A stretch of 64,000 nt of DNA from Octopus vulgaris. Its lineage: Eukaryota. Below, in pieces: positions 21,946 through 61,692 of this stretch (its first letter is position 1; each line of letters begins with the position of its first letter). Location of the stretch: assembly GCA_951406725.2 (NCBI GenBank), contig OX597816.1, positions 103,416,001-103,480,000 on the forward strand, written 5' to 3'. Made by a program: the position numbers and the translations under genes. Below the pieces are notes generated by a model. It ran no database searches and was not told the DNA's origin. It saw only the letters and a list, made by a program, of their open reading frames with translations.

Positions 21946-22041
21946 GTTTGAAGGTCTTTGATTGCTGTAGTTCTCCAAAAAGAGCAGTGGATATCCTGTT
22001 GAGCGAGATCAAAGGTCATGGATGTTCAACAACGATAAATG
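21946..22041 (+). CDS. Class C GPCR exon A (VFT1; phase 1/1)
   Basis: Polypyrimidine tract, then caag|GT. Encodes (G)LKVFDCCSSPKRAVDILLSEIKGHGCSTTIN(G), matching the mGluR lG..i.DtCs....Al motif. Donor G|gtaagt at 22042. Confidence 0.8.
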
Positions 22042-23198
22042 GTAAGTATGTTTATAATACATTCATGAGTTTAAAAATTAGTTTCAAACTATTAGTAATT
22101 CTCACTTGCAGTGTCGACTTTATATTTCTGTAACGATTACAAATCCTTTGAGTGACCAGGCTTGAATCGAACTCAGAACACCAAGAAACACAACTAAACA
22201 TCATCAGGCACTATGTCAAAGTACTTCTACAAATTCAGGCAAAGAGTACGGTCGATTTAATCAGCATCACTTCTTAAACAGTACAATTCAAAGATCTCAC
22301 CGAAACTAAACAAACATAACGAAGTGCAGTGAATCTGTTTCTCTGCCACCCTACCAGTTCTACCATCCTCTGTTCATTTTAGTATTATCACAACAGTATT
22401 ATTAATAATCCTTTCTAATATAGACACAAGGCCTGGAATTTGGGCGAAGAGACAAATCGATTACATCGATTCCACTGCTCAACTAGTACTTATTTTATCG
22501 ACCCTAAAAGGATGTAAAGCAAAGTTTACCCCTGTGGAATTTAAACATCCTATTATTAATAATAAGTATTATTATCAATAATACGTCAAAATTGGGAATA
22601 TGATTTTTGTTGTTGCATAGCTTTAGACGAAGCAGGTTAATGATAAAACGACATTTCGTCTTTACTTATTATTTTCAGAATTAGTGTAACCCTGAACTGG
22701 ACGGTGAATTAGCTGCAACGTTAGAGCATGAAACGAAATTCCACTGACGTATTTATTCCGTTCCCTTGCGTTCTGAGTTCAAATCTCAATGGGGCCAACT
22801 TGGTCTTTCCTTTTTGGGGACCAACGAGTAAAAGTGTGATAGTCTGGTCGATACAATGATATATAGATAGATAGATATCATACATGCCGTATTTATTCGC
22901 AAAGAAGTCTCATCTTTTGGACATAGCTTGTTGCTTTTTTCTTGTGTTCCTTTGGCACGTATAATGCGTAATGTTTAATATAACTTATATTCAATCCTCA
23001 ACACTTAGCTGGTAATATAAAATAATTATTTGGGAGTTGATACGTATATTTTCCAGGCGTTAAGTTACAAAAAAGTTTTTTTCATTTTTTTTTCTATTTC
23101 TTATCTTGTTTATAGTGTCATCCGTGTGTAAGAAACACATTACATGCATTAAGCTTTCATTGAATATTGATAAGCACGATTTTGTTTGCATTTTTCAG

Positions 23199-23359
23199 GT
23201 ATTGTCATATTCACTTCTTTAGAAGTGTTTTCCGAAATGAAAAATTACCTGCAGAGATTTCAGATCCCTCAAGTTATTATTTGGGGAGAACTTCAAAAAC
23301 CGCCTAATCCAACACCATTCCAAACGATCATACGACTGAAATCAATTAAAAAGTCAAAG
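23199..23359 (+). CDS. Class C GPCR exon B (VFT1; phase 1/0)
   Basis: tttttcag|GT. Encodes (G)IVIFTSLEVFSEMKNYLQRFQIPQVIIWGELQKPPNPTPFQTIIRLKSIKKSK, matching the GVIG..sS.v...v..ll.lf.IPQIsy...f.R segment. Donor AAG|gtaact at 23360. Confidence 0.8.
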
Positions 23360-24735: not shown

Positions 24736-25482
24736 GCTCTGGTGGAATTAAGCCAATCTTTGGATTGGTCGTATATTAACACTCGAGTGAGTGCAAGTGC
24801 TGATGCTTTAGAAGAATATAAATCCTTTTTGGAACAAGTAGCTCTTAGTGAAACGAAAATATGCATATCAATGGAAGAACCCGCCAGTATTAACCAACAA
24901 AGTCAATCCTCGACAGTTCTCTTCTTTAACAATGGATTAACTAACTCCGGACAACACGAAGCTGCTATGCTCAGCGATGCCACAAGTAAAATTACACTTT
25001 TTATTTCGGATAGTAATTCAGATCTAAAACAGATCGTCTTAAACGCAACAACGAATGGACTTCTACTACGTGAAGATTTGCCACCCCTAAAGAACTTTCC
25101 ATTGGCTGATGTCCTTGTAAATAGATCAAACTTAATGATCGACCAGGCTGGCGAAATTTCTCGTCATTGGCTTACCCAAAACCATTTCTGTAAAATAAAC
25201 AACGATGTCCTTGGTAATTGTGATATTCCTAATATTCAGAGCGTTTTGTCGGAGGCTTTGAACTTGAAATCTATCCATGGTGTGATTAAAGCTATTAAAA
25301 TGCTATCTGGTGATTCTAATGTCACTTTAAACGACTCAACAACAGCAAATAACAATGTTACAAATATCACAAGAGCAGACGATAGCTGGAATGACGTTTT
25401 CAAAATGTCGAATATCGAGAACATTTGGGAAATGAACACGGATTTCAGTCTATTTGCTACTGTCGGACCTGTTTTTGAAAAG
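24736..25482 (+). CDS. Class C GPCR exon C (VFT1 remainder; phase 0/0)
   Basis: ttttacag|GCT. Encodes ALVELSQSLDWSYIN...ICIS...VFEK (the Al..l...f.W.yV and iCI motifs). Donor AAG|gtaggt at 25483. Confidence 0.85.
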
Positions 25483-25944
25483 GTAGGTTGCTAATGTAAC
25501 TGTAAACTAGTTTAAAGGAATAATGGTGAAGTGGCAAAATGAAAGATACACTATTTGTAGAATTCCAATATTTTACATTGAATAAAAGTACTATTCAAAG
25601 ATATTTACATATATAGAATGTCTGCATGGACAGCTCAGCGTATAAATTGTAGAAATTAAACTCTCATTTCAAAAGGTTCTTATTCTAGTTTTAAAATAAT
25701 CCTTAGAGGCAACTATCATATGAGATAATAATAGCTAGTCGATAAAAGATGAATAAAAACCAATATTTTTTCTAAATTCAATATATAAAGATATAACTAA
25801 TTAAGAACTTAAAATACACAAACTCGTACGTAATATTGTTCGTGTTACTTTGACATATTACACAAAGCTATTTATCCTTTTCTTACTAATGCCAAAAAGT
25901 ATCATTCATATGTGTGTGCGTATGTGTGTGTGTGTTTGTCTGTA

Positions 25945-27219
25945 CAGGGATTGTACAAAATAATGGAAACACCTAGCATCATAGCATCATAACTTTGAAA
26001 TATATAAAAAAAAAACGTCAAAAGCTTGTTTATTTTTATGTTTTTTGATGTAATATTAGTTTTGCTTAATATGTTTTGCTAAAATTACTGTTTCTTTTCA
26101 AATATCATTAGAAAAAAGTAATTAAAATTCATTTAAAATGACAGATCTATCGGACTTTCAAAAAGGTCAAATTGTTGGTGCTCGTATGGCAGGCGCTAGC
26201 GTAATGAAAACAGCCGAAATGTTTGGTGTATCAAGAAGCGCTGTCTCGAAAGTAATGACAGCCTTTGAGAAAGAGGGAAAAACCTCCTCGTCGAAATCGG
26301 AAGAAAACCAAAACTTTCAGATAGGGACTTCGGACTCTTACGCGAATTGCTAGAAAGGATCACTAAAGTACAGTTCCCAAAATTACTGCAGAGCTTAATG
26401 ACCACCTTGAGAACCCAGTTTCCACAAAAACTGTTCGCCTGGAGCTGCACAAAGCCGAATTTTGCGGGATGGTTTCAATCAGAAAACCACTACTTTCAAA
26501 AACAAACGTTGCAAAGAATTTAGAGTAGTGTAGAAACCTACAGAATTGGTCCCTAGAGCAGTGGAAGAATGTTATTTTCTTGGACGAGACATCCTTTACT
26601 TTATTTCCGACCACCAGCCGAGTATACGTGTGGAGACAGCCAAAAGAAGCATTTGACACAGACTGCCTTCTTCCAACTGCTAAACATGGAGGAGGATCTG
26701 TGATGATCTGTGGGGGTGGGGCTATATCTTGGAAATCCGCTGGCCCAATGGTTTCCTTCCATGGCAGAATTAATAGTCAAGACTATTTACGCATTTTATC
26801 CTATCAAATTCATCCTATGGTTGCGGAACTGTTTCCGGAGGGAAACGCAATCTTTCAGGATGATAATGCACCAATTCTCACAGCTAAAGTTGTTACTGAA
26901 TGGCACGAGGATCATTCTATTGAAGTTGAACATCTTATCTGGCCACCACAGTCTCCAGATTCCAATATTATTGAACATTTATGGTGCATTTTAGAAAAAC
27001 AAGTAAGGAGTCGATATCCTCCACCATCATCACTACAAGAAATGGAAACTGTTTTAGCTGAAGAATGGACAAAAATTCCTTTGGAAACAATTCAAACTTT
27101 GTACAAGTCCATACCTCGTAGAATTCAAGCTGCAATTACTGCCAAAGGTGATCCTACCCCATATTAAAATAAATGTGTTTGAAATTTTAAGGTATTTCCA
27201 TTATTTTGTCCAACCCCTG
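25945..27219 (+). mobile_element. Full-length Tc1-like transposon (DD36E spacing), inactive
   Basis: 30-bp TIRs CAGGGATTGTACAAAATAATGGAAACACCT / AGGTATTTCCATTATTTTGTCCAACCCCTG (3 mismatches). TA duplication at 25943-25944 and 27220-27221. Length 1275 bp. Confidence 0.93.
26138..27167 (+). pseudogene. Tc1-like transposase pseudogene
   Basis: Paired-like HTH (MTDLSDFQKGQIVGAR...), GRKPKL after a frameshift, in-frame stops, then DETSF, KHGGGSVM, FQDDNAP and WPPQSPDSNIIEHLW. Confidence 0.9.
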
Positions 27220-27318
27220 TATGTATATATATATATATATATATACGTATGAATGACACTTCCTATTACAGAAAGTTTGTTTGCATGTGTGTGAGAGATC
27301 GGTGGGGTGAGAGTGTAA

Positions 27319-27355
<37 letters not shown>

Positions 27356-29352
27356 AAGGCTTCTGTAAAGTTTCCATCCGCCAAATTCTATTCTAAATGT
27401 ATGGCTTAAACCGAAGCTATAACAAAAGACGTGAAGACACTTGCCCAAATTTCTGAACAGCTTCGCAAAATTACTTTCTTCTTGTAGTGAACGTATCGAA
27501 CAGTGTTGTCTTATGAAAACACGTGCATCGAAGTTCAAGTTGCTCTAGGAATCATAAAGATAAAACTTAAAAGCATTAATAGCACTGCAGATGGTAAAAT
27601 CAATGAGGAGGACGGCAACAATACCAAAGGGTATTTAACTGCATCACTTCAGTTTTTTAACTCGCTTCCTGCTGAAAACATCTTGGCCTTTCATCCGATC
27701 CGGGATCAATGTGATTCCGTGCAAATATAAGAAATCAATAATATTCTCCACCATGACGTATTCAACAGCTGACGTGGGAGAATATTATCCTTTCCTGTTC
27801 ATTTTTTAGTAAATATTTGCTCACACTGAGTGTATCTGCCCCAAACATATCCTTATACAAGGATACACCTACAGACACACATAGACGGATAAACAGATAG
27901 ACACACACACATACATACCCACTTACATATGCATCATATGCATGCACATGCGAAAGTACACTTTCACTCACAAACACACATATGGATTCCTGAATGTTTG
28001 CGCTTTCAAACGAAGATAAGAGTAGCCAATACAGAAAGTTGAGTTTTGTGTGTTTCTGAAGTTGAAGTTTCTTAAATCATTACTTTCGGTTTCATATTTC
28101 AAACGATTCAAAAAGCAAAGCAGAGTAAAAATATATAAGCAAAAATAGGTAGAAAAACACGTTAGAAAATGAATCGTACTATCGACTTTTCAATTGTCCT
28201 ACAGAAGAACGTACAAAAATATGCAATATTTTCAAATTTTTAATATCATAAATGTAAAACTCCTGAAAAAACAGAAGTTGGTTATCGGTGACGCAGTTTT
28301 CGTGTTGGTGAAACAACCAATTCTAACAAGTTGGTATTTGGAAATTTTCTCCACGAGTATCGTTATAAGTGTTTGAAAGACTTCGCACATTCCAATCTAT
28401 TGGTCACAATTACCAAAGTGGTAATAGAATGCTATATTTCTCCTAGAGATATTAGTAACCCAATATCATATCTTGGGTAATTGATGTAGAAGGACGTTCG
28501 TTCTCTAATGGATCCATCAATTTTATAATTCATAATATTATTCAATAGACTCCTGATATATTTGTGCAATAAGATGGTCTTTCTGAGTGTCTGAATACGT
28601 AAATATTTTTTAAGATTTCTTTTTTAAAGGAATTTTTGTTAAGGCCGATGTAGCTTTCTGTTTCACTGTTATTTTCAAGAGAACTTATTTCAATAAGCTA
28701 ACCCGTTGAGCGAAGCCGTTGCAGTTATACAGAGGAAGAATTTTTGCGTTCTTACTGATGAATTTTCTTCTGATTTTGGTTGAGTTGTCGCTCCCGTTAC
28801 CGTTATTTCTATCAAAGATATTTTAATGTTTATGGTAAACAGCTAAATGCTTATTTATAAGGTTTACGAAAATCGTGACAACACTGGGGCAAACATTTAA
28901 GCTAAATGAAGTTGTATACCATAGAATATTTTGTTTCATTTGTTCTTTAGTATTAGTGCTTTTCTGCATATAATGTATTCTTTGTGCAATTGTCTTTTAA
29001 TGCATCATTGTATCATGTGCTATATAGTTAAAAGATTCTTCATCAAAGCATAAACTGAATATTCATTTACCGATATTATTAACTGAGTTTCTAAGCATTA
29101 TTGCGGAATAACTGGAATTTATATGAACATATTGCAATTTCACATTTAGTTTGTTATAGAAGCCATGTTTAACAGCATCCATATCTAAAATTAGATTAGT
29201 ATCTACAGTGATCTTTAATTCTTTGTGCGTTGAATATATTGATGAACTCCTTTCTAAATGTAACCATTGTGTTGCCATTCATGCTTCGCAAAAAGAATAA
29301 ACCATTATAACACCAAAGATTGCATTCTATGCAGCAGAATATCTTTCCAAGT

Positions 29353-29430
29353 ATGTCTAAGACGCACAATCCTATCAAGTGAGTGACCAACATGTCTAAG
29401 ACGCATAATCCTATAAAGTGAGTGACCAAC
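29353..29430. repeat. 39-bp tandem duplication
   Basis: ATGTCTAAGACGCA(C/T)AATCCTAT(C/A)AAGTGAGTGACCAAC x2. Confidence 0.85.
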
Positions 29431-29548
29431 ATAGACACATAGTCCATTTCCATAACTGTAACATTCGATTCCTGGTCATTACATTTAACACAAAAGCATT
29501 TTTCGTGAAATATCAAAGACATCGTAGCATACATAATAATGATAATAT

Positions 29549-29762
29549 TGATTTCAAATATTGGCACAAGATCAGCAATTTCGGGAGAGATGTAAGTCGA
29601 TTACAACGACTCCAGTGCTCCACTGGTACTTATTTTATCGACCCCGATAGGATGAAAAGTAAAGTCGACCTCGGCAGAAAGTGAACTCAGAGCGTAAAGA
29701 CGGACGAAACGCTGCTAGGCATTTTGCTCGGCGTGCTAACGATTCTGCCAGCTCACCACCTT
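29549..29762 (-). mobile_element. tRNA-derived SINE (family A)
   Basis: Reverse complement of the 9982 head and central domain; CpGs retained. Confidence 0.85.
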
Positions 29763-31156
29763 ATATATACTAATAATATTAGTGTTTGAGTCACTAACTG
29801 GAATAAAACTTCAACCGAATTCTGAGGCTTTTACAAGAAGGGAAATAAGTATAGACGGATAAAACTCTACTACATTAAACTGTATAAATTTACCAAGGGG
29901 GTTTATTATCTCATGAACCACCTCATAACTGGTAAGCTATTATTCCATAGTGAAAATGAAAATACTTGTTAAATACTGCAAATTATGGAATCTAAAATAT
30001 TTAAACTAAACTTACTTATCTAACTTTTTCCGGATTTATTAATCTATATTACGGTTTGGAAAAATATTATTTCTATGATCCTTATAAGTAATATATGACT
30101 CACGTTATGCAAAATATGCTTTGCTGTATATTTTTAGGTTGGAAGCTATTCATTTTGCACTTCTAAATTAATACCAGGGTAAGGATTAGAGTTGGTTTTC
30201 TTGTAGATATTGTAATATTATTGGAGAGGCGCCTGTGGTATGAGAAGTTATAAGTTTCGCTCAAATGTTTCGTTTCTTCCGAAGAAATATGCATGCATTG
30301 CCAAGTTTTTAATTGTTTTAAATCTCTGTTTAATATGTCTCCCGTCGATATTTATCGATGAATTTCCAAGTATTAACTGGTTGAAAAAATGTTAATTTCC
30401 ACAAAATTAAATGTTGGATAAATATTCAAAATTATCATTCAGTTATTCGTCCTCACTAAAACTGCATTAATAGTAACCACCTTGCTTTTGTGTGTTTTAC
30501 TTATATGATAAAGCAGACAAGAAAAAATAATAAAACCAGGTGTTGCTGCATGTGAATTGGTGAATATATCACAAACTTTGCTTATAACAATTGGGTAGAT
30601 GAATATGTGGCAATTTTCTAACACTGTTTTGAATACCAATCAAATTGCAACGACTAATTATATTTCAATGTATTGCAAATATCTTTGTTTATATATTATA
30701 TCGCACTACTTTTTTCGTTCAATCGTTTGAATAATCGGTAATCAGAAACATGAAATTCAAAGTAACGGTTCAAGAAACTTTCATTTCTAATTCATCACAG
30801 TTCAGCCTGTCTTTTAGGGGTTATCTGTTTAGGGCTACAAAACCCAATATATCCTTCCCTATTTAAAATAGTGGGTATTGATTTGAAATATATGGCTACC
30901 AGAAATAAGTGACTCCTAGAAAATGCTGCAATCACATAGAAAGTCCTTTGAATCATATCCCGATATATTACCTATGTATGTGATTGAAAAATTGCGTGTT
31001 TGTGTGTGTGTGTGTGTAAGCAATTGTAAATGCATCAGTATCTCACAATGCACACACACTCACACATCATACACGCACACACTCATACACACATACATAG
31101 GTACGCTAGATTATGAATAAACATACACAAGTGTGCAAAAACATGCATGGGTATTG

Positions 31157-31197
<41 letters not shown>

Positions 31198-31263
31198 TAT
31201 ATGTATGTATGTACGTATGTTTGCATATATATATATATATATGCATGTACGTATGTGTGTATG

Positions 31264-31699
31264 TATAAGAACAATATAACGCGAGGATGGAAGATACCAG
31301 GCTTTAATAGTAGATCAGAACATTTGTTTCTGCACTGCAGACCCATATTCATATACCGTTATACAAAATTATACTTTATAATTACTATATAGTTGAATGT
31401 TTTTTCAGTAAGAGCCGCGTGTGGCCGCTTCATCGGGTGGAATACGATTAAACACCCGGAATTTAATAATTTGATTGGTGAACAGTAAAGTACATCCGAC
31501 AGTGTTTTCATGGTATTACAACCGATGAAAGGCCCAAACACTGTTACTGCTGAAAAATATTCAATTATAAGAATAATCTTGCATAATGGTATTTTAATAT
31601 AAACTCAGCAACTTAATGCTGGTGTGCGGTGCAGTAACAAATCTTCTGATCTACTATTAAAGCCTGGTGTCTTCCACCCTCTGTTATATTATTCTTGTA
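31264..31699. repeat. ~440-bp degenerate palindromic (fold-back, MITE-like) element
   Basis: TATAAGAACAATATAAC...GGAAGATACCAGGCTTTAATAGTAGATCAGAA pairs with TTCTGATCTACTATTAAAGCCTGGTGTCTTCC...GTTATATTATTCTTGTA. Inner arms around TTCATCGG / CCGATGAA also pair. Confidence 0.75.
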
Positions 31700-32347
31700 T
31701 TAATCTTGTATTCCGCGTGTATCCAGCCTTGGAAAATATCCTACTGTAGAATAACATGTGGTGGTCAAATAAGCGCACAAAAGCTCTTAAATGCCTGTTG
31801 CGAGATTTTTACTCGAATTATACTGTTTGTGTGTTTGTGTGTATGTGTGTGTATGCGCGTGTTTTACTTTTTTTATTTGTATTATTGTTTGCTGTGAATA
31901 TATTTCTTGTGCTATGCGCACTTAAAAACTTAGTGAACTTCTCATCATTGACTTCTTTCATCGGAATTATGGATTAGAAAAAAGAGCTCCAATTGAATAC
32001 TCTAGTTTTAGAAACACTATGAAAGAGAAAAAGCAAGCATATATTCATAGCTAGTATGATTTTGCTCATAAGTTTGTTTCATTGTGTTTGAACCATGGCT
32101 CAACAACTGAATCAATAATAATAGAATTAGGAATATATATATAAACATCTTTGCGTTCATTTTCTTTAGTTTCGAAATATTTATTTATAACCAGATATGA
32201 TTGATTTTAAAGAAATGAAAAATGTCACTTTAAAAGTTATTGTATTTTTGCTTTCATTTTCTTTTATAAATATTAGATTTTGACATTAATTCATAGGAAA
32301 ACATCACTATTTATCATCAGCCTTTCATTTTCTCATTTGTAACCCAG

Positions 32348-33688
32348 GTCGGTCAAATTAACGGATCATTCTACCCGTTGGATAAAACAAGATGGCGCTT
32401 AATTTCAGAGAAATTACACGGTTCGAATTGTCCAAGTTATTGTCCAGCCTGCATCCAATGTTCCCATAACAGGACTGAATTATCGGTTAGCAAATTCGAA
32501 GAAGGAGACTTTTATGTTGCATTAGTACTTCCTGTTCAAAAGTCCCTAATATGTGATGAAACTAACCATGAAAACGAGTTGCTTGTTGATTATTTTTTGA
32601 AGTCACTTCGCCAGATAAAAGAAAAGCCTTCGACTGCGACCGGTAACAAGCTAGGGGGTATTGTCATAGACTCCTGTCACTCTCAAAGTGACTCCGAAAA
32701 CATGTGTTACAGTTTTATTGACAAAAATGGCATCAAGCGAGTAATAACTTCTGGTAACCTGTTATCCACTATTCATGTCCCCAATCTGAGCAAAGAGCCT
32801 TACCAAGAACACCCAAAAAGAAATTCTCTGCTACCCAGCATTCACATCACAAAAATCGGATGCTTCTTTGACAACTTAAATGTTCAAAAGTACGTATCTG
32901 TAATTTTGGATGTCATGGAGTCACTTCGCTGGTCTTATTTAACTATATTATTATCAGAAAATCCATTCATGAAAGCAATTCATAAGGACCTTAGTAAACA
33001 AGCCAAAATGAAAAACATGTGCATTCGAAATGTTATATTAATTGAAGATTTAAGAAGAGCTCAATTGCTTAACCAAAATAATCTTTTCTCTGAGCAAGAT
33101 TCTTCGGCACTGGTTCTTCTAACTGATTTATCTGATACTTCTGAGTTTTTGCATTCTATTTCAAAACATTATGGTTCTTCTCATGTATTCAATTTTGTTT
33201 TCTTCCCATGGAATTCAAAAGCGATTTCGAATTTAGGATCTAATCTTTTTCAAAGTTCTGTTTTCATTGAAGTTAATAACCCAAAATCATATGAAATTTC
33301 CAGAAATGTCACCTCTTTGAATGTTTCTGAGCTAGAAAGTCAACTTGAAATGTGTCATTTAAGTCCTTCTGGGAAAATCTATTGTCCTGCGGGCAAAATT
33401 GTGAAGAAGTCGCAAAAATCGGTATTCTTTAGTTATTTGACATCTGTACTAGAGGTTACTGCCACTGCCTTAGATCAAGTCAGTTCTAAATTATGTTCCG
33501 GAAAGAAAGGACTTTGTAACGAATTTCTTGAATGGCCAAATGTGATGTCAAACTTCCGACATTTCTTGAAAACATCACCTGTTTTCTTATTCGGTGAAAA
33601 AACACACTTTGATGAGAATGGAGCTCTGGAAGCCAACTTTGCCATGAAAAACCTTCGAAGAATCGGAGACGAATTTGAATGGATCCAG
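32348..33688 (+). CDS. Class C GPCR exon D (Cys linker + VFT2; phase 0/0, 447 codons)
   Basis: acccag|GTC. Encodes VGQI...SNCPSYCPACIQC...EGDFYVALVLPV...LGGIVIDSC...WSYLTIL...MCIR...LCSGKKGLC...FDENG...WIQ. Donor CAG|gtaagt at 33689. Confidence 0.92.
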
Positions 33689-34622
33689 GTAAGTGTTGAA
33701 ATATCTTTTAGTAAAAATCAGAAAGAAGATAGTGGTTTCGTAATACGTATAGCTCACATTTCAGCGATCCATATAAAATCACGACTAATATTTATATTTC
33801 TTGGATGTATTTTAAGCTGTCAAGTAAGGAATTATAGAATTTGACTTTATTTTTCTGTTGTAAATTGTGCGAAAGATTTTCATAAAATGTTAATGTCATA
33901 GTTGGACCTTGTAAGTTTACACATGTGCATACAGTTTATTTCTATGTTTACAGTTTAAGGGCACATATCCTTTAGATATCGGACCCTGTGTAACCTCATC
34001 TACCTAAATGCAAGTTACTTTCGGTGAATTCAGATTTTTTATTGAATAAATATTCCTTCCATATATTTTGAAACTATATACTCCTAGCTGGTTTCATATC
34101 TGCATGGAGTAAGTAGAAGCATTGGATTAAATTTTGGAACATGCCTAATACTCTTCGTATCAGTATAAGAGGTGGAAAAGGCAGCATAGACTCTATAGGC
34201 ATGGTTGACATGAGAGAAGATTGAACATAGAATGTAGAAGGACGAAAGTAAATATTTCAGGGCATGTAGCCTGGTGTCTTGCCAGTTAAGCTCCTAAAAT
34301 CACTATTTTTCCTATTTCAAACGTAAACTTTGCATTTAACATTGGTTGATATCCATACCTGTTTCCGATTATTTTATGCTTTAATATAGCTGATAATTTA
34401 ACTTGTTACAAATTCCCGAAAAATTATCCAAAATGAAGGAGAGTTTCTCTCGGTATTTTGTACGAGTTCCATTAGTTAACATCACAGCTTCTTTCCCTAT
34501 TAGATAAGGTTTGGATTAAATTATCATTATATTGTAATTTTCATGATATATTCACTAGCGTACCAACATTTGAACACGTTTCCAGATAAGAGGATGCCGT
34601 AGTCATTACCATTATTATATTG

Positions 34623-34765
34623 TTCAGTTTCCACCGAGGTCGAATTTTCATTTCATCTTTTTGGAGTCGATAAAATAAGTACCAGTTGAGCACTGGGGTG
34701 GATGTAATCAACTTACCTCCTCCTCCTCCTCCTCCAAACTTGCTGGCCTTGTGCCAAAATTTAAA
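34623..34765 (+). mobile_element. Partial SINE (family A 3' half)
   Basis: CCACCGAGGTCGA...TTTCATC...GTCGATAAAATAAGTACCAGTTGAGCACTGGGG...GGCCTTGTGCC. Confidence 0.75.
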
Positions 34766-34995
34766 ATCATTATTACAGTGTTCAGTATGCTCAATTCGTG
34801 AAAAGTTAAGCATAAAGCATGTAAGTATAAAAGTGTCCTGGCTTAATTCACAGTTGTGTACACTAAAAAAAGAAAAAATCCGAATGGCTAAATATTAATA
34901 ATGTTGGACTGCCTTTGTATAGATTATAAGTACTTATATTTTAACAGAATCATAAACTATATCATTTGTTATGTATTTTCTCCGTTTTTTCCTAG

Positions 34996-36546
34996 GTTGG
35001 CCAATACACTATAAACAGAAATATATCTCTGTTCAAGAAATCAGTGCGAGGCTATAATGCATTACAAGATGTTAAAGCTCCAGTTTCTGAATGCAATGGA
35101 TGGTGCCCTCAGTGTTACCAGTGTGATAACTCTCCCGGTAAAACAATAGATATTAATAACGACTTCATTTACATGCCTGGTGATATTTTAATAACGGCAA
35201 TGATGCCTGTACGGAAGGCAGGACGAACAATATTTGAATGTGGGGATGTCACCATCGACAGTGATGTTGATCAACTGATAGAGGCTGTGATTTATGCTGT
35301 CAAAACAGCAAAACAACGACACAATTCGCTTTTGAAAGATATTGATCCTGGTCTTTTAATCTTGGACACATGTTCTTCTAAACAAAAAGCCTTAACCATT
35401 TTAGGGAATTTTGAATCTTGTGCATATTCTCTTCGACAAAATAGTAAAGAAAAGTCTAAAAAAATCGAGAAAAATGAGGATTATTATTCAAGCTGGGGAG
35501 CAAGCCCTAAACTAACTCCAGCTTATATGGCAGTTGGATCTTCGGATGTCCTTGATATTTTGTTGGATTCAGTTGCAGATTTTAAAAAGCCTGTTATGGC
35601 AATAGACAAAAATGGAGGTACACGTAGAGCACAACGAGATTCAGATTTGCACGAAACCACTTTGTCGATGACACTCTCTGCAAATGCTCGATTTTCCGCT
35701 ATGATTGGTCTCATAAATGCATATCGCTGGAATCATGTTTTCGTCGTTGCCTCTGACTCACCAGAGAACCATAAACTAATTCAGTTATTCAGTGATATGA
35801 CCAGGAGTACCAAAATATGTATTTTACATATTATCTGGCTAAAAGACATTCTCGGAGTAAGTTATGATGACCTAAGCCCTAACAACGAAACTAATTCAGA
35901 TGATCCTTTCCTATATGCTCTCAAGCTTCTTGCTACCGACAACACCACAAAGTTAATCATCGCTTTTATTTCTGAAGATCACTTCACCAAATTGAACTCG
36001 TTGATTAAGAAAAGCAACTTGTCAGTAATATGGTTTTTTGACCAATCACCTGATGGTTGGGAAAGACATCCATTGAATACAACAATTCCGGCTGGTGCAT
36101 TCACTATCGATCGGGCGACTCAGGTATACACAGAATTCGAGAAATATTATAATTCGTCACTGAGAGGAACAGACAACGTTTGGTTTTCTCGACAGCGGCA
36201 AAAGCGTTCGTCTTGCCAAATCAAGAACAACAGCCAGTTACGAAAAACCTGTTTAGGTAAGGGAATTCCTGCGGATCAGGCAATATCTCCTGTAACTACA
36301 GATGTCATACGTGCTACTGATGCGATATTATTTGCCCTACAAAGGGAATATTTGGACAAATGTGGAGGCAAAGGTGGCTTGTGTAAAGAGTTTAATTCCA
36401 GAAATATTCTGACTCTTGATTCTTTCAAAAATATTGAAGTTGAGTTTGAAAGTGACTCCTTCCAGTTTGATGAAAGCCGAGAAGTGGTAACAAGCATAGC
36501 TATATATAGTCGAATTTTGAACGAAAACAACACAAAAATCATAAAG
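34996..36546 (+). CDS. Class C GPCR exon E (Cys linker + VFT3; phase 0/0, 517 codons)
   Basis: ttcctag|GTT. Encodes VGQY...SECNGWCPQCYQC...MPGDILITAMMPV...ECG...EAVIYAV...LLKDIDPGLLILDTCSS...WNHVFVV...ICI...NVWF...DAILFAL...CGGKGGLC...FQFD...IIK. Donor AAG|gttagt at 36547. Confidence 0.93.
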
Positions 36547-37174
36547 GTTAGTGGAAATTTTTCGATTTTATCAGTGTACAAGTGTGAGTGTGAAAGTGTG
36601 AACGTGTGTGTGAATGCATGCGTGAGTGTGTGTGTGTATGTGTGTGTGTGCGTGCGTGCGTGAGTGCGTGCGTGTGTTTGTATGCATGCGTGTAAGTGCG
36701 TGTATAGGGCCAGGGCTGTAGGCCCTCAGGCAAATGAATGTACTGGACTCTAGAGTATTCATTATCAACTACAAGGCTAACTATACATCGATCAGAATTG
36801 AGCCTCTGGACTAGTGGGACCGAAGGGCTGAGGGGCCACTGAGCAACTTGCCCAGTGTGTCCATGCCTCAGACGGCGTTGTATACAAGCGCAGGTATGAC
36901 CAAGTTTTATAAGTTTGCTTTGTAATCTTGAAATACCGGGTTCGATTCCACTTGTGTACCCCCATCCCATAGCCTTATAAGTAGACGTAAACTCCGCAAA
37001 GTCATCTAATGGATTGTTGCTGTTAATGGAGAGGCCAACTTCACTGCACAGTGACTCGTTGGTTTTGTTTGGGCCCGAGTACAAATGGCAGTGAATACTC
37101 ACTCACTTCCAAGCATTTCCAAGGAAGATCCTTAATAGATCAAACAATTGGAGTAATTAATGTTGTAACAGACG

Positions 37175-37214
<40 letters not shown>

Positions 37215-37285
37215 ATGTATATATATATGTATATAGGGAGACAGACAGACAGACACATACATATGTATACATATGTATGCACGTG

Positions 37286-37342
<57 letters not shown>

Positions 37343-37458
37343 GTGTGTGTATGAATTAATGAATGGATGTATGTATGTACGTATGTGAGTGTGTATGAAT
37401 GTATGTATGTATGTATGTATGTATGTATGTATGTATGTATGTATGTATGTATGCATGC

Positions 37459-37512
<54 letters not shown>

Positions 37513-37540
37513 ATCTATCTATCCATCTGTCCATCTAAAT

Positions 37541-37620
37541 CAGTGGTTCCCAACCGTTTTTTGGCCATGCCCCACCGAATCATTTCTAAAATCCTGATGC
37601 CCCCCTTGTGATATTTAATT
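37541..37620 (+). mobile_element. One end of a hAT (Charlie-like) MITE
   Basis: CAGTGGTTCCCAACC terminus preceded by ATCTAAAT. No matching other end found. Confidence 0.45.
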
Positions 37621-37904
37621 TTTGGTATTCAAAATTTGGTTAATGTTTACAATATTACCCGGAAACAAACCCCCAAAAAAATTGTGCAACGGATGTAAAA
37701 AAAATGTGTAGGAAAAGAATATAAAAAAATGCGCGGAAAGCAACGGGAGGTGGGGGATAAGGACTTTGGAAAATTCACAAGATCCGAATTTTTCCTTCAT
37801 AGCTTCTAAGGAATTTTTTTTTTTTAGATGAAATTTTAAATAGATACCTTTCAACCAGCATATATTACGATTATAAAGAAATTTGTGGGAAAGTCTTTCC
37901 GTAA

Positions 37905-38075
37905 GACTAGTTTCGATTCCTAGTCCTGACGGAACGTTGTGTTCTTGCGCAAAGCACTTCATTTCACGTTGCTCCAATCTACTCAGTCGACAAAAATAAA
38001 TAATTCTATGGCGGACCGGTATCCCGTCCAAGTGGGGAATATAAACCCCACAGAATCCGGGAAAACGACCTTATG
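37905..38075 (+). mobile_element. Degenerate SINE (B-box plus V-domain-like segment)
   Basis: GTTTCGATTCC...GTGTTCTTGCGCAAAGCACTT...GGCGGACCGGTATCCCGTCCAAG. Confidence 0.55.
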
Positions 38076-38810
38076 AAGCTATGGCTCTGGAAGAAATTTT
38101 GATCCTATTTTCTCCTAACGTATCTACCTTTTGCTGTTCACTTTTCTGTCTCTGTTTTTTATTCCGTTTACTATCCATGTACTTTTGGTTATCGTTGCTA
38201 CCTTTACTTGACTTCTTGCATCTTTCTGTCCCCTCTTTTACTCCTTTTCGATGGGCTATGGTGCACCTGAGCACTGGATACATCAAACTCATTAGTCTGA
38301 TTAACATCAGAATATGTGACAACCGCCATCACACTTTAGTGAACCCACTGCTAAATATACTAAACAAAAGTCGGGTACTCTTTTTTTCTACAAGCATCAT
38401 TTTGATTGATTAATCTGTTTTACTTTTTTAAGAAGAGGAGAAACTAATTCGTACTTACCGGATTCATGGCTAACAATTAAAATTTGACCGTAAAACCATA
38501 TTAACATTTTTTATTTCGTTGTAATGAAAAAATATGAGATTGGGATTTTGCGATTTCTGTAATCTTCATTTTCTTCATTAGTACGAAATAAATAGATGAA
38601 ATGCGATTCTACAGTTGTATTTTAATTTCTAACTGCTATGAAGTAACTAAAACTTTCTTTCATCACAAATGAGCAAAATGAATGAGCCAACCAAAAGGAA
38701 TCATGTAGATTATTATCTCTTTGATGTAAAATATAAAATGGTATTGCAATTAGTACTCTATTCATAGTGAATTTATCATATTTTATTTCTTTATCTTTTA
38801 TCTTCATTAG

Positions 38811-39971
38811 GTTGCCGAATGGAAAGATGACACTTTGTTCGAAGTTATAAAAACCACCATCTTACTAAATGACAATTTTGGTGATGATCTGGATAAAGAA
38901 GATGTCAGGTTAATGATGGAGGCCAGTTGTGAAGAGAAGTCTTGTACGTGTGCGAATATGCCACCAAAACCAACTCCATCTATGAAATCTACAATGGCAC
39001 TAACATTACGGGATGAAGGATTTGTAAAGTCGACTGGTCAGTTTCGGGGAACTATTTGGGCAACTGTAGTAATAACAGTGGCGGCTGCTGGTGTCTTAAC
39101 GGCGATTGGAATCTTCACGTATCTTCTTTATAAATATTGTCTGGGTACCGGTTGCGGACGACGCTATTGTACTTTAGCGTTGATCCTGTTATTTGCTCTT
39201 GTTGTACAATATTCCACCATCTTACCATTTGTTTTCACGCCCAACGAACTTGTATGCGAGATGCGTTATTTCGCTCCTGCTTTTGGTTATGCATTTACCC
39301 TTAGTATAATACTCGTGAAGCTAATGAATCTTCACGATTATAGATTAATAGGACTCGGTGGAACTTTATCAATTGTCAACCAGTTATTGACAATTGTTTT
39401 TATAACAGGCATCCAAGTAGCAGTCGGTCTGCAACGATGGCTTCTAAAGAAATCTGCACTGGCAAAGATGGTTACTTACTATGGAGTTTCCATCTATAGT
39501 TGTTTGTTTGATAAGTATGATTTTATTTACTACATCTGTTATCCGATGTTTCTACAGATTCTCATCTTGCTTTACGCAATCTCTCTTTACAAAGAGAAGA
39601 GAAATCTCCGTGAAGCCAAATATATTCTTTTGGCTTGTGTTTTCAGCATTGTTGTTTGGTTGGCGTGGCAACTGGTCTACTTCTTGCAACCAAGCAAATT
39701 CATGCAACCGGCTGTCGCAATCGGTATCCTAATATTTACCACTGTTAATTTATCTCTCATCTTTATTCCTAAGATACACATGATGGCCACTCTAAGATAT
39801 GATGTCAACAAGACGTCACAGGATCACTACAGTACCAAAGCCGATTCAGACTTTTTCTTTGAAAGACCTTTTTCTCTTCCTGGCACATTGAAAACATCTG
39901 TTTCTGAAAAAACATATGCAAGATCTTACGACGCTTTTGAGAATTCAAATTATTCATCGGGGTCTGTTTGA
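38811..39971 (+). CDS. Class C GPCR terminal coding exon (VFT3 end, short Cys linker, 7TM, C-tail)
   Basis: ttcattag|GTT. Encodes VAEW...SCEEKSCTC and seven hydrophobic helices with class C motifs: LVCEMR (TM3 Cys), SIILVK, YSC (ECL2), [21 protein letters not shown]. Stop TGA at 39969-39971. Confidence 0.95.
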
Positions 39972-51659: not shown

Positions 51660-51872
51660 AGATGGCATGCTGCCAGAATCATTATTGCACTGAACAAAAA
51701 TTGCTTAGTAATATTTTTCTGGTTTAACTTCCCAAGTTCTAATGCCACTGAGGTTGACTTTGCTTTTTTATCTTTTTAAGATTGGTGGTAATAACTACCA
51801 GCTGTATATTAGGGTCGAAGTAATTGATTAGACCCCTCCCCTAAAATTTCAGGCCTTGTACCTATAATAGGA
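51660..51872 (+). mobile_element. Degenerate SINE (family A) with CpG decay
   Basis: Aligns to the 9982 copy with CpG>TpG/CpA changes (e.g. GAGGTTGACTTTGC). Confidence 0.7.
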
Positions 51873-51952
51873 AGGACCACCACCATCATTATCATCATTG
51901 CTGTCACTGCCACCGTCGTCATCGTCACGCCGTTGTCATCATCATCATCATC

Positions 51953-52866
51953 AAGACAGAGCAGCATTTCATCCATCTTTCTTAGGAATCTTGCAGAATA
52001 TAGGATGGAATTTTTCTGTCTTTTGACAATGCAAGTTTCACTTCCAATATCTTTCAATCTTTTAGGTAGCATTTTGGGTGTTGTGCCAAGTACACCAACT
52101 ACTGTTGGAATAATTGTTGTCTTAGTCTTCCACAGTCTCTTCAGCTCTCTAGCTGGATCCAATTTCTTTGGTATTGACTCTGATATAAGGAACTGCAATG
52201 CCTATGATCATACACTGTTTGTTTATTTTGTTCTCTGTAATCATATTTGGTCTTTTTGCATCAATATTACGGTCAGTCTTTATTTGGAAGTCTCATAAAA
52301 TTGTGTAATACTCATTTTCTATCACAGCCCCTGGTTTGTGTTCATACCACTTTTCTGTTACCTACACAATCATGTCTGTGCTTATACTATTTTTCTACTA
52401 GTATACTGCATTCACTCAAGATATGATTGATACTTTCATTTCCATTTCTATAGATTCTACATTTGCTGTGTAAGTTTTGATGATCTTTGTCTTTATCATA
52501 TTTGTTCCATGGCAAGAACATTTCAGGTTCTTATCTGTTAGCCAGAGTCAGCAATTTTTACTCCCAACATTCTGTTTGTTGCATGAATTGGCCATGTAAT
52601 TCCATTTCTTTCCATTTTCTTGCTCTCTTGATCTTTCTCCTAATTCTTCCATGTTTCATTTACTTTTCAGTATCTCTAGCTGCCAATAGTATTCTTTCTT
52701 TATCCTTCACAATATAGTTTTTCAATCCCATTATCATGATGCTAAAGGAGTCTCCTGTGTTTAGTAATCCTCTGTCTTCTTCCTTTCTTGGTAGACAGAG
52801 TCTGTTGGTCTTACTTTTAAGATGGTGCGCATTGAGCATTCTCAGCACCTCTTCAGTTCTATCCAA
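51953..52866 (-). pseudogene. R4/Dong-clade LINE C-terminal fragment (RT end, Zn knuckle, RLE)
   Basis: Minus-strand segments RLCLPRKEEDRGLL, LHGQF, KWYEHKPGAVIENE, ELKRLWKTKTTIIPTVVGVLGTTPK...QKNSILYSARFLRK, ending in (TGA)n. Multiple frameshifts. Confidence 0.8.
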
Positions 52867-60079: not shown

Positions 60080-61692
60080 CCATGTTTCCCCGAAAAAAAG
60101 ACCTGGTCTTATATTAATTTTGCATAAAAAAAAAAACGCACTAGTGCTTTTTTTCAGGGGATGTCTTATATTTTTGCGGCAAAATATCCAAGAAAAACAA
60201 AAAAGTCTCATGTCCTCATGTTAAAGGAAAAACTGTAAAAAGGAAACCCATGTTTTTAGTTATCAAAAGTTTATTTATTTGCCTATCGTCTTTAGTCAAG
60301 TATAAACATTTCGTCCTCTTCTGGAACATCGTTATAAATCATCAAGCCCCGAACTTCAGACTGAATTTCTTGCAAATCCATTTCCTGTAGAATCACGGAC
60401 CCCAGTCTTTCATGTTTGGCAATATAACTTTCCTTAAATGAACACTTTTTTGTCCAAGTACCCTGCTCGTAGCGCATTGGCAACGAAGCTGTTGGTAATT
60501 TTATTCCATGAATTTTTCACCCAATTAACAACTTCTTGGAGGCTGGGTTTGACAAAGTTTCCACGCTGATTTCTCTCCATTCTCTGTTCGATATATTCAT
60601 TCACTTCCATCCGCAAATAATCTTTGAAGGACTTGTTTATTACAAGATCTAATGTTTGTAGATATGAAGCTATTCCCGCGGGAATCATTATGTGGTCAAT
60701 TCTTCTTTCAGAAAGGAAGGTTTTTTTATATCTTTTACGTGATGAGTGCTGGCCGAATCCCAGACTAAAAGACCTCTTTAAGAACCACGTAAAACAAGTG
60801 GCATAGTTAAATCAACCCTTTTTTTTTATAATAGCTTGTGTGCACCAAGCCTTTTCCGTATCAAGGACATAAATGCCTGAAACTCGTTCTACTTTCTGTT
60901 TTTGCCCTTTGTGATGATAAGCGGTGTGACTTTTGTTCCATCAAGACGAATTGCTAAAATACAAGTAATTCTTGCACTTTCGTAACCCTTTGAGGCAACG
61001 TAGATTGACGAGGCACCTATCTGTTCAATTGTCATTTTAGATCCTTTGCCTATAAATACTGCAGTCTCATCCATAGCAATTATATTGGAGAGATTGTATT
61101 TAGATAAGTCGATGCCATCAACGGACTTGAATGCAAGTGCACATTAAATCACTTCAGCATCCTCCAGCTTAAACAGTGTTGTCAATCTTCTTAGAGAGAG
61201 CTCATATCGCCGAAGGAAGTTATCCAACCAATAAGGTGATGCTTTGAATATCTCTGGGAGTATATCCAACTGTGGTGCCATTGCAAGAGCAAATTATAGA
61301 ATATCAGCCTTGTGTACAACCAAAACTTACCCTTCTTAGCACTTCCCTCATCGACCTGTCGGCTGAAATTATCGTATTCTGTTCACCATTTTCGACCCAT
61401 TCGGAGATCCAACATCTTCTTAGAGAAAGCCGTAAGATTCTTGTTATGTGACTCTTTCACAATTCCTTTCTTGTACTCCATGGAGTAACTCTTTCTTTCT
61501 GCACTCAACTTGCCTGGGGGACAAGGGAGTCAGCTACTTTAGCCAAGCTGTGGTAGTTAGTTTATTTTGTAAACATCATATAATCTTGCTAACAAGCTGA
61601 TGCATTTTTGACTAGGTCTTATTTTCGGGATAGGGCTTATATTAAAAACACCCTGAAAAATCATGGCAGGGCTTATTTTCGAGGAAACGCAG
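60080..61692 (-). mobile_element. pogo/Tc2-like DNA transposon, inactive
   Basis: Imperfect TIRs CCATGTTTCCCCGAAAAAAAGACC / GGGCTTATTTTCGAGGAAACGCAG, TA on both sides (60078-60079, 61693-61694), and subterminal GG(G/T)CTTAT repeats. Confidence 0.85.
60292..61508 (-). pseudogene. pogo-family (CENP-B HTH + DDE_1) transposase pseudogene
   Basis: Fragments RKSYSMEYKKGIV, FKASPYWLDNFLRRYELSLRRLT, MDETAVF...GYESARITCILAIRLDGTKVTPLIITKGK and IPAGIASYLQTLDLVINKSFKDYLR. Frameshifted. Confidence 0.88.

Follow-up and report, generated by a model that had tools for sequence, protein, structure and literature searches.

The window analysed here (64,000 nucleotides of Octopus vulgaris DNA, contig OX597816.1, positions 103,416,001 to 103,480,000, forward strand) holds exons of a gene for a G-protein-coupled receptor (GPCR) of class C that carries three Venus flytrap (VFT) domains in series, here called V1, V2 and V3, ahead of a single seven-transmembrane (7TM) domain. 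We consider it about two-thirds probable that this is a mostly constitutively spliced orphan receptor, composed of three repeats of a VFT and a truncated cysteine-rich linker, in which module number has been tuned between lineages rather than, as far as present records go, by splicing in octopus. In the mechanism that we propose, the receptor lineage would have possessed an old phase-0 intron just before the last VFT strand, and an exon lying between two such sites would automatically be symmetric, such that recombination between introns could duplicate or delete a whole module and leave frame and fold intact. This may have produced V2 and V3 before the mollusc classes split, and the same process would have removed V2 in neoheterodont clams, where the absence is seen in annotated proteins and the genomic mechanism is inferred. 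The gene would illustrate that a large folded domain can become portable by virtue of a single ancient intron site.

Exon structure and a common intron position

A protein search with exon E retrieved the O. vulgaris product, named 'metabotropic glutamate receptor-like' (P0001, 1783 amino acids, aa), as well as orthologues from Argonauta (P0002) and from a cuttlefish cluster (P0003). The annotated P0001 joins exons C, D, E and F exactly at the positions given in Table 1; all four exons have AG/GT ends, and their lengths are each divisible by three. A preliminary description, made from the sequence alone, had placed these exons, had given the junction residues as FEK/VGQI, WIQ/VGQY and IIK/VAEW (slashes mark the phase-0 introns) and had held that removal of D or E would keep the frame, all of which was borne out by the splice ends, the lengths and the annotation. 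The same description stated that V1 is split by internal introns and that V2 and V3 are not; indeed, V1 is interrupted by at least three introns, two of its internal exons (A and B) were located, and D and E are uninterrupted. No exon for receptor residues 1–98, which include the signal peptide, was found in positions 1–21945 of the window, which means that the first coding intron exceeds 21.9 kb unless this stretch of the assembly lacks the 5′ exons.

The three boundary introns had been described as falling just before the last VFT strand. This position was corroborated by alignment of the family profile 'klvk/vGew' with mGlu2 'YRYQK/VGYW', and by a structural model of exon E (predicted local distance difference test, pLDDT, 75.8) that superposed on the VFTs of metabotropic glutamate receptors (mGluRs) with Z scores of 26–29 (best Z 29.3, root-mean-square deviation 3.9, 399 aligned) and stopped at mGlu2 residue 470 and mGlu1 residue 496. 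A single-sequence fold of exon D had a pLDDT of 35 and was discarded. Three phase-0 introns are expected by chance alone at ~10%, calculated with a phase-0 frequency of 0.47; the structural position that they have in common is not chance. Because the three sites are copies of one ancestral site, they are not independent of one another.

Table 1. Receptor exons and other features of the window (positions counted from the first nucleotide of the 64,000).
Feature	Position	Strand	Description
Exon A	21946..22041	+	Internal to V1; 96 nt, phase 1-1; P0001 residues 99-131; donor GT at 22042
Exon B	23199..23359	+	Internal to V1; phase 1-0; P0001 residues 132-184
Exon C	24736..25482	+	Remainder of V1 to second-last strand; 747 nt, phase 0-0
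Conserved intron flank before D	32297..32347	+	In-frame alternative acceptor (AG ending 32320) adds 9 residues
Exon D	32348..33688	+	1341 nt, phase 0-0, intron-free; V1 last strand, 4-Cys mini linker, V2 minus last strand; ANF_receptor E 2e-10
Exon E	34996..36546	+	1551 nt, phase 0-0, intron-free; V2 last strand, CxxWCPxCxxC mini linker, V3 minus last strand; ANF_receptor E 6e-10
Exon F	38811..39971	+	1161 nt; V3 last strand, 3-Cys linker, class C 7TM, C-tail, stop; 7tm_3 E 3e-24
Decayed Tc1/mariner-type DNA transposon	25955..27209	+	In intron C/D, not receptor; DDE_3 E 1e-12 on 26529-27164; matching inverted 14-mers at 25955 and 27209
Open reading frame	51809-52201	-	No significant Pfam match
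DDE_1 (pogo/Tigger-type) transposase fragment	60434-60811	-	E 2e-9

Domains, linkers and ligand pocket

The product was assigned to class C by exon F, which scored 86.5 bits on the 7tm_3 profile relative to a cut-off of 33.5. Pfam recognised three ANF_receptor stretches and one 7TM in P0001, and these stretches, together with the mGluR-like model of exon E, identify the repeats as VFTs of the class C kind, although exon C on its own gave no ANF_receptor match in Pfam. The nine-cysteine NCD3G domain was not found in P0001–P0003; a comparison protein, P0004, has one (E 4e-9). The segment after the last VFT strand, previously called a linker, is a truncated cysteine-rich domain (CRD), as in the alignment its 'srCyskC' falls on the first two CRD cysteines of mGlu2, 'SRCSEPC'. 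Linkers between VFTs have the form C-x3-C-x2-C-x2-C, three cysteines lie ahead of the 7TM, and exons D and E each consist of the last strand of the previous VFT, a mini cysteine linker and the next VFT minus its last strand.

The amino-acid pocket motif of mGluRs, SYxS/T ... RTxP, by which they bind the amino-acid backbone, was anchored on P0004 and the mGlu alignments. Y[GA][AS][ST] occurred in 0 of 59 family units and R[TS]xP, anywhere in the unit, in 4 of 59; two of three Branchiostoma units contained the former, as did the comparison receptor with a CRD. Judged from sequence, none of the three VFTs has the canonical amino-acid-binding motif and, since they would be without the mGluR amino-acid pocket, the receptor is unlikely to be a glutamate receptor. 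V3 and the 7TM are the best conserved parts and contain most of the 74 invariant columns, and V2 is dispensable in clams. The membrane-proximal V3 would most likely couple to the 7TM, and V1 and V2 may lengthen the ectodomain, either as a spacer or as a surface on which a non-canonical ligand, perhaps a protein, would bind. The ESM Atlas returned generic ANF_receptor clusters only.

Distribution in molluscs and loss of V2 in clams

A search of a representative library with exon F gave 480 matches, 150 of which were listed. Among the matches listed, the top long orthologues were those of Haliotis, Lottia, Biomphalaria, Nucella, Mizuhopecten, Saccostrea and Sinanodonta, with further orthologues in Littorina, Pinctada, Tegillarca, Mytilus and Potamilus. 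Three VFTs and a 7TM were present in 15 genera, including Octopus, Argonauta and cuttlefish, and thus in cephalopods, gastropods and most of the bivalves sampled; all complete three-VFT orthologues had the order V1-V2-V3. The great divergence of the units, and the long open frames that D and E each form, could suggest that neighbouring genes have been fused in the gene model. The protein has, however, one signal peptide and one 7TM and the same order of modules throughout these genera, and a fusion is effectively refuted by uninterrupted full-length open reading frames (ORFs) on assembled contigs.

Proteins of Mercenaria, Mactra, Mya and Dreissena (4 of the 4 Neoheterodontei found) were shorter, at 1248–1275 aa, and contained V1 and V3 only. 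Clam unit A scored 137–180 bits on V1 compared to 23–43 on V2, unit B was of the V3 type (283–311 bits on V3 compared to 98–107), and no V2 remnant was detected by profile scores in the annotated proteins of the four clams. They have a single inner linker, of the CxxWCPxC type; in 17 of 17 three-VFT proteins, this type was present one time, as the linker between V2 and V3. The clam units fell with V1 and V3 (support 100/99) in a tree of single VFT units, and in a 7TM tree (41 rows) the clams nested with the three-VFT Sinanodonta (100/98) inside a mollusc clade (98/95). Because of this nesting with a three-VFT receptor, the two-domain state of the clams is a derived loss. Its composition is what skipping of exon D would give, and a receptor without module D, as in one of the isoforms envisaged earlier, does exist in four clam species. 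The two-VFT clam and three-VFT versions constitute a natural deletion series from which it may be learned what the outer modules do and which one communicates with the 7TM.

Broken or partial models, recognised by eye and by domain scoring, were left out of the architecture count (Batillaria P0043, Babylonia P0042, Mytilus edulis P0034, Aplysia P0202, P0029, P0032 and a second Mya model, P0040). Batillaria P0043 comprises part of V1, the tail of V2 and V3, and is readable as a D-less form but keeps V2 tail residues. Sinanodonta P0039 and P0187 are near-identical 1709-aa models with neighbouring locus tags, and represent either a tandem duplication of recent date or an artefact of assembly.

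Origin of the modules

Profiles of V2 and V3 cross-scored at 98–127 bits, compared to 23–34 bits against V1. A phylogeny of the individual units (47 units, 412 columns, LG+G4) recovered V1, V2 and V3 each as a clade (100/99, 100/98 and 100/99, respectively), joined V2 and V3 to the second unit of nematode two-VFT receptors (99/96), and joined V1 to the first nematode unit and to single-VFT receptors that included a millipede protein (99/96). FastTree on 75 units agreed with this tree. The topology is suggestive of a protostome ancestor with two domains, followed by a single duplication that gave V2 and V3, the latter node being weak (87/49). Simple triplication of one domain is doubtful, as the best tree separates V1 from V2/V3; a single clade of all 25 mollusc units was nonetheless not rejected in an approximately unbiased (AU) test (p = 0.245).

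Intron sites in relatives were inferred from the ends of genomic ORFs. Cuttlefish ORFs end or begin at C/D and D/E. In Biomphalaria, an ORF of 461 aa starts at the D/E strand, runs unbroken through exon E and ends at E/F. Among the matches listed, five ORFs (P0041, P0045, P0046, P0056 and P0061) start with intron-like residues and a Q just before the strand, and seven others that hold the strand have continuous coding there. The boundary intron looks ancient, judging by these ORF ends, and the comparison of intron positions with orthologues, proposed earlier, points to the same intron in cuttlefish and Biomphalaria.

These data bear on the earlier proposal that the ectodomain grew by duplication of an intron-free module, through intron loss or retro-copying. 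The duplication itself stands: same-phase introns at homologous positions flank homologous exons, as expected of symmetric duplicated modules, and the bit scores set D and E together and apart from V1. It is improbable that V2/V3 entered not by internal exon duplication but as a retro-copy without introns, or as a piece of some other class C gene. Such an entry would account for the absence of internal introns in D and E and for the separation of V1 from V2/V3 in the best tree, and V2 and V3 profiles also score Branchiostoma units at 126–186 bits, higher than they score each other; such higher scores to slowly evolving outgroups are, however, expected from rate differences. Moreover, since ORF ends place the boundary intron in cuttlefish, in a snail and in relatives farther removed as well, retro-copying is unnecessary, the grouping of V2 and V3 with the second nematode unit fits an old two-domain ancestor and one duplication, and the AU test did not reject one clade of all mollusc units. 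Exon symmetry, which follows from duplication of an exon between such introns, is probably a side effect of duplication in tandem and by itself predicts no alternative splicing.

Splicing of exons D and E in cephalopods

The preliminary description had further suggested that ectodomain length could be tuned by alternative splicing, and this was not supported for octopus. Neither D nor E was missing from any of 17 long cephalopod protein records (0/17), all of which keep V1-V2-V3. O. vulgaris contributed 2 annotated isoforms, O. sinensis and O. bimaculoides 3 each, and Argonauta and Sepia pharaonis 1 each; the other 7 were assembled proteins of the cuttlefish cluster (15 of 28 members listed, of which P0015, P0016 and P0027 are unrelated short proteins). 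The 17 varied at the N terminus, in a shorter C-tail, or by a 9-residue insertion at C/D (3/17), the last being part of the annotated forms X1/X2 of O. sinensis and X1 of O. bimaculoides. The 7 cuttlefish proteins are uninterrupted ORFs that stand for 27 assembled contigs, the longest of 6.2–6.7 kb and, because cuttlefish genomic ORFs stop at such junctions, we infer that these contigs must be spliced transcripts unbroken through all three. Skipping would give products of 1336, 1266 and 819 aa with the frame kept. A search with exon F restricted to 677–2000 aa (5688 candidates) returned only three full-length clusters and one with exon E restricted to 906–2585 aa did not find the 1336-aa form, such blanks being weak evidence. 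Overall, gene models and assembled contigs suggest a receptor that is mostly constitutively spliced, and the claim of splice isoforms is unproven and probably minor. Of 24 sequencing runs listed, 14 contain the stretch and were presumed to be RNA, with shares mostly of 0.69–0.73, approximately the exon fraction; none is on record as RNA, and they were not used as evidence.

Regulated cassette splicing, in which D and perhaps E would be skipped in some coleoid tissues or stages to give two- or one-VFT isoforms beside the three-VFT form, is unlikely in our judgement. Skipping would keep the frame, the resulting D-less architecture does occur in clams, and the intron flank upstream of D is conserved between octopus and cuttlefish, with 15 of 17 translated positions of its 51 bases identical to two cuttlefish genomic ORFs; in mammals, conserved flanks have been associated with less frequent inclusion of cassette exons (PMC5055659). 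Exons of 1.3–1.5 kb with good splice sites are, however, atypical cassettes, and the flank is conserved on the upstream side only, as downstream of D 1 of 20 translated positions matches. Flank conservation was judged by translation in one species pair, in which the flanks of E could not be compared. Also against skipping are the records and length searches above, in which no skipped form appeared, and the 9-residue alternative acceptor, the sole annotated variation at C/D, which could itself account for the conserved flank.

Several points weigh against a mostly constitutive receptor with its module number tuned between lineages. The 40 residues around C/D are the most conserved ectodomain window between octopus and cuttlefish (85% compared to a mean of 46%) and, with the conserved flank, this suggests that the splice site is regulated in some way. 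Rare variants are lost from gene models and assembled contigs, such that rare skipping may occur. On the evolutionary side, the deep nodes of the trees are long-branched, and the clam breakpoint scan was flat over ~100 residues and not placeable on an exon edge, the global alignment having misplaced the gap. The clam proteins are annotations, one of them flagged as low quality, and exon D could persist in the clam genome and be skipped.

On both sides of C/D, positions 32297–32420 and 25435–25482 are highly conserved between octopus and cuttlefish, and the same region is poorly conserved in other molluscs. This conservation could reflect control of splicing or editing of the RNA. No signal of RNA structure was obtained at the conserved D acceptor (z = +0.74). 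As a candidate editing or splicing stem, the end of exon C formed its best duplex with early exon D (-34.8 kcal/mol compared to a mean of -19.9, standard deviation 4.8), but this was tied with a transposon window and is approximately the best of some 500 windows by chance, and was rejected as stem evidence.

Comparison with known receptors

Class C GPCRs are described as having one ligand-binding domain per protomer, and VFT closure is relayed through the CRD (PMC12716839); the metazoan class C architectures listed in that paper are single-ANF only. Three serial VFTs, a shortened linker and a pocket that has degenerated, all retained in the different mollusc classes, mean that this receptor cannot work exactly by canonical activation. 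Relative to mGlu1-8, the best PDB matches of the family by sequence profile (E 5e-82), the octopus receptor has the same VFT fold (Z up to 29.3), a class C 7TM and the start of a CRD, but differs in having three VFTs per chain, no NCD3G, linkers of 3–4 cysteines, no amino-acid motif and ~20% identity. It thereby departs from the mGluR/CaSR/T1R group, which is marked by NCD3G and one VFT per chain. GABA-B receptors, class C VFT receptors without a CRD as far as described in PMC12716839, likewise lack an NCD3G match between VFT and 7TM; the octopus receptor differs from them in its sequence and fold matches to mGlu and CaSR, its CRD remnant and its three VFTs.

Other multi-VFT class C proteins, with generic or no names, were found in Branchiostoma floridae (3 VFTs), Babylonia and Physella (5), Trichinella and Steinernema (2), and Antedon. 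As in octopus, tandem VFTs with short S-x-C..C..C..C linkers are followed by a class C 7TM, but their 7TMs form separate clades from that of the mollusc family, with deep links that are not firm, and the Branchiostoma and five-VFT proteins partly keep the amino-acid motif. Babylonia P0163 and Physella P0164 (~2870 aa) represent a second gastropod class C family, with five tandem VFTs and the motif partly kept. P0064 (Branchiostoma), P0166 (Antedon) and P0095/P0100/P0128 (the two named nematodes and one grouping with them) have 2–3 VFTs joined by short cysteine linkers of the same kind. Possible relatives are C. elegans F35H10.10 and Drosophila CG32447, which appear in papers as list entries only.

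One might go further and regard these proteins as an undescribed invertebrate class C branch with a plug-in exon module of a VFT and a mini cysteine linker, present in 1, 2, 3 or 5 copies by lineage, with a mollusc family devoid of the classical amino-acid pocket and with coleoid splicing regulation at C/D giving ectodomains of different reach. As a whole this is a tentative reading that we think improbable; its between-lineage part is well supported. No description of tandem-VFT class C GPCRs was found in the literature searched, in which the matches for tandem VFTs were bacterial BvgS/EvgS, a scope that excluded subscription papers; supplements of papers may list these proteins, and the repeats themselves are already displayed by domain databases. 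Repeated VFTs are unmentioned in the available portions of PMC9138782, PMC11682238, PMC10670001, PMC6307864, PMC12716839, PMC4302439, PMC1192796, PMC6408891 and PMC2246102. The bacterial sensor kinases BvgS/EvgS carry tandem VFTs on one chain above a membrane signalling unit (PMC4352136) but are histidine kinases and not GPCRs, which makes this an analogy only. Venus kinase receptors, also of invertebrates, reuse a class C-like VFT but have one VFT, a single pass and a tyrosine kinase (PMC3703292).

Other elements in the window

Besides the receptor exons, Table 1 includes a decayed DNA transposon in the intron between C and D and, on the reverse strand, a transposase fragment and a further ORF. 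The latter was judged by eye to resemble the end of a non-LTR (long terminal repeat) retrotransposon protein.

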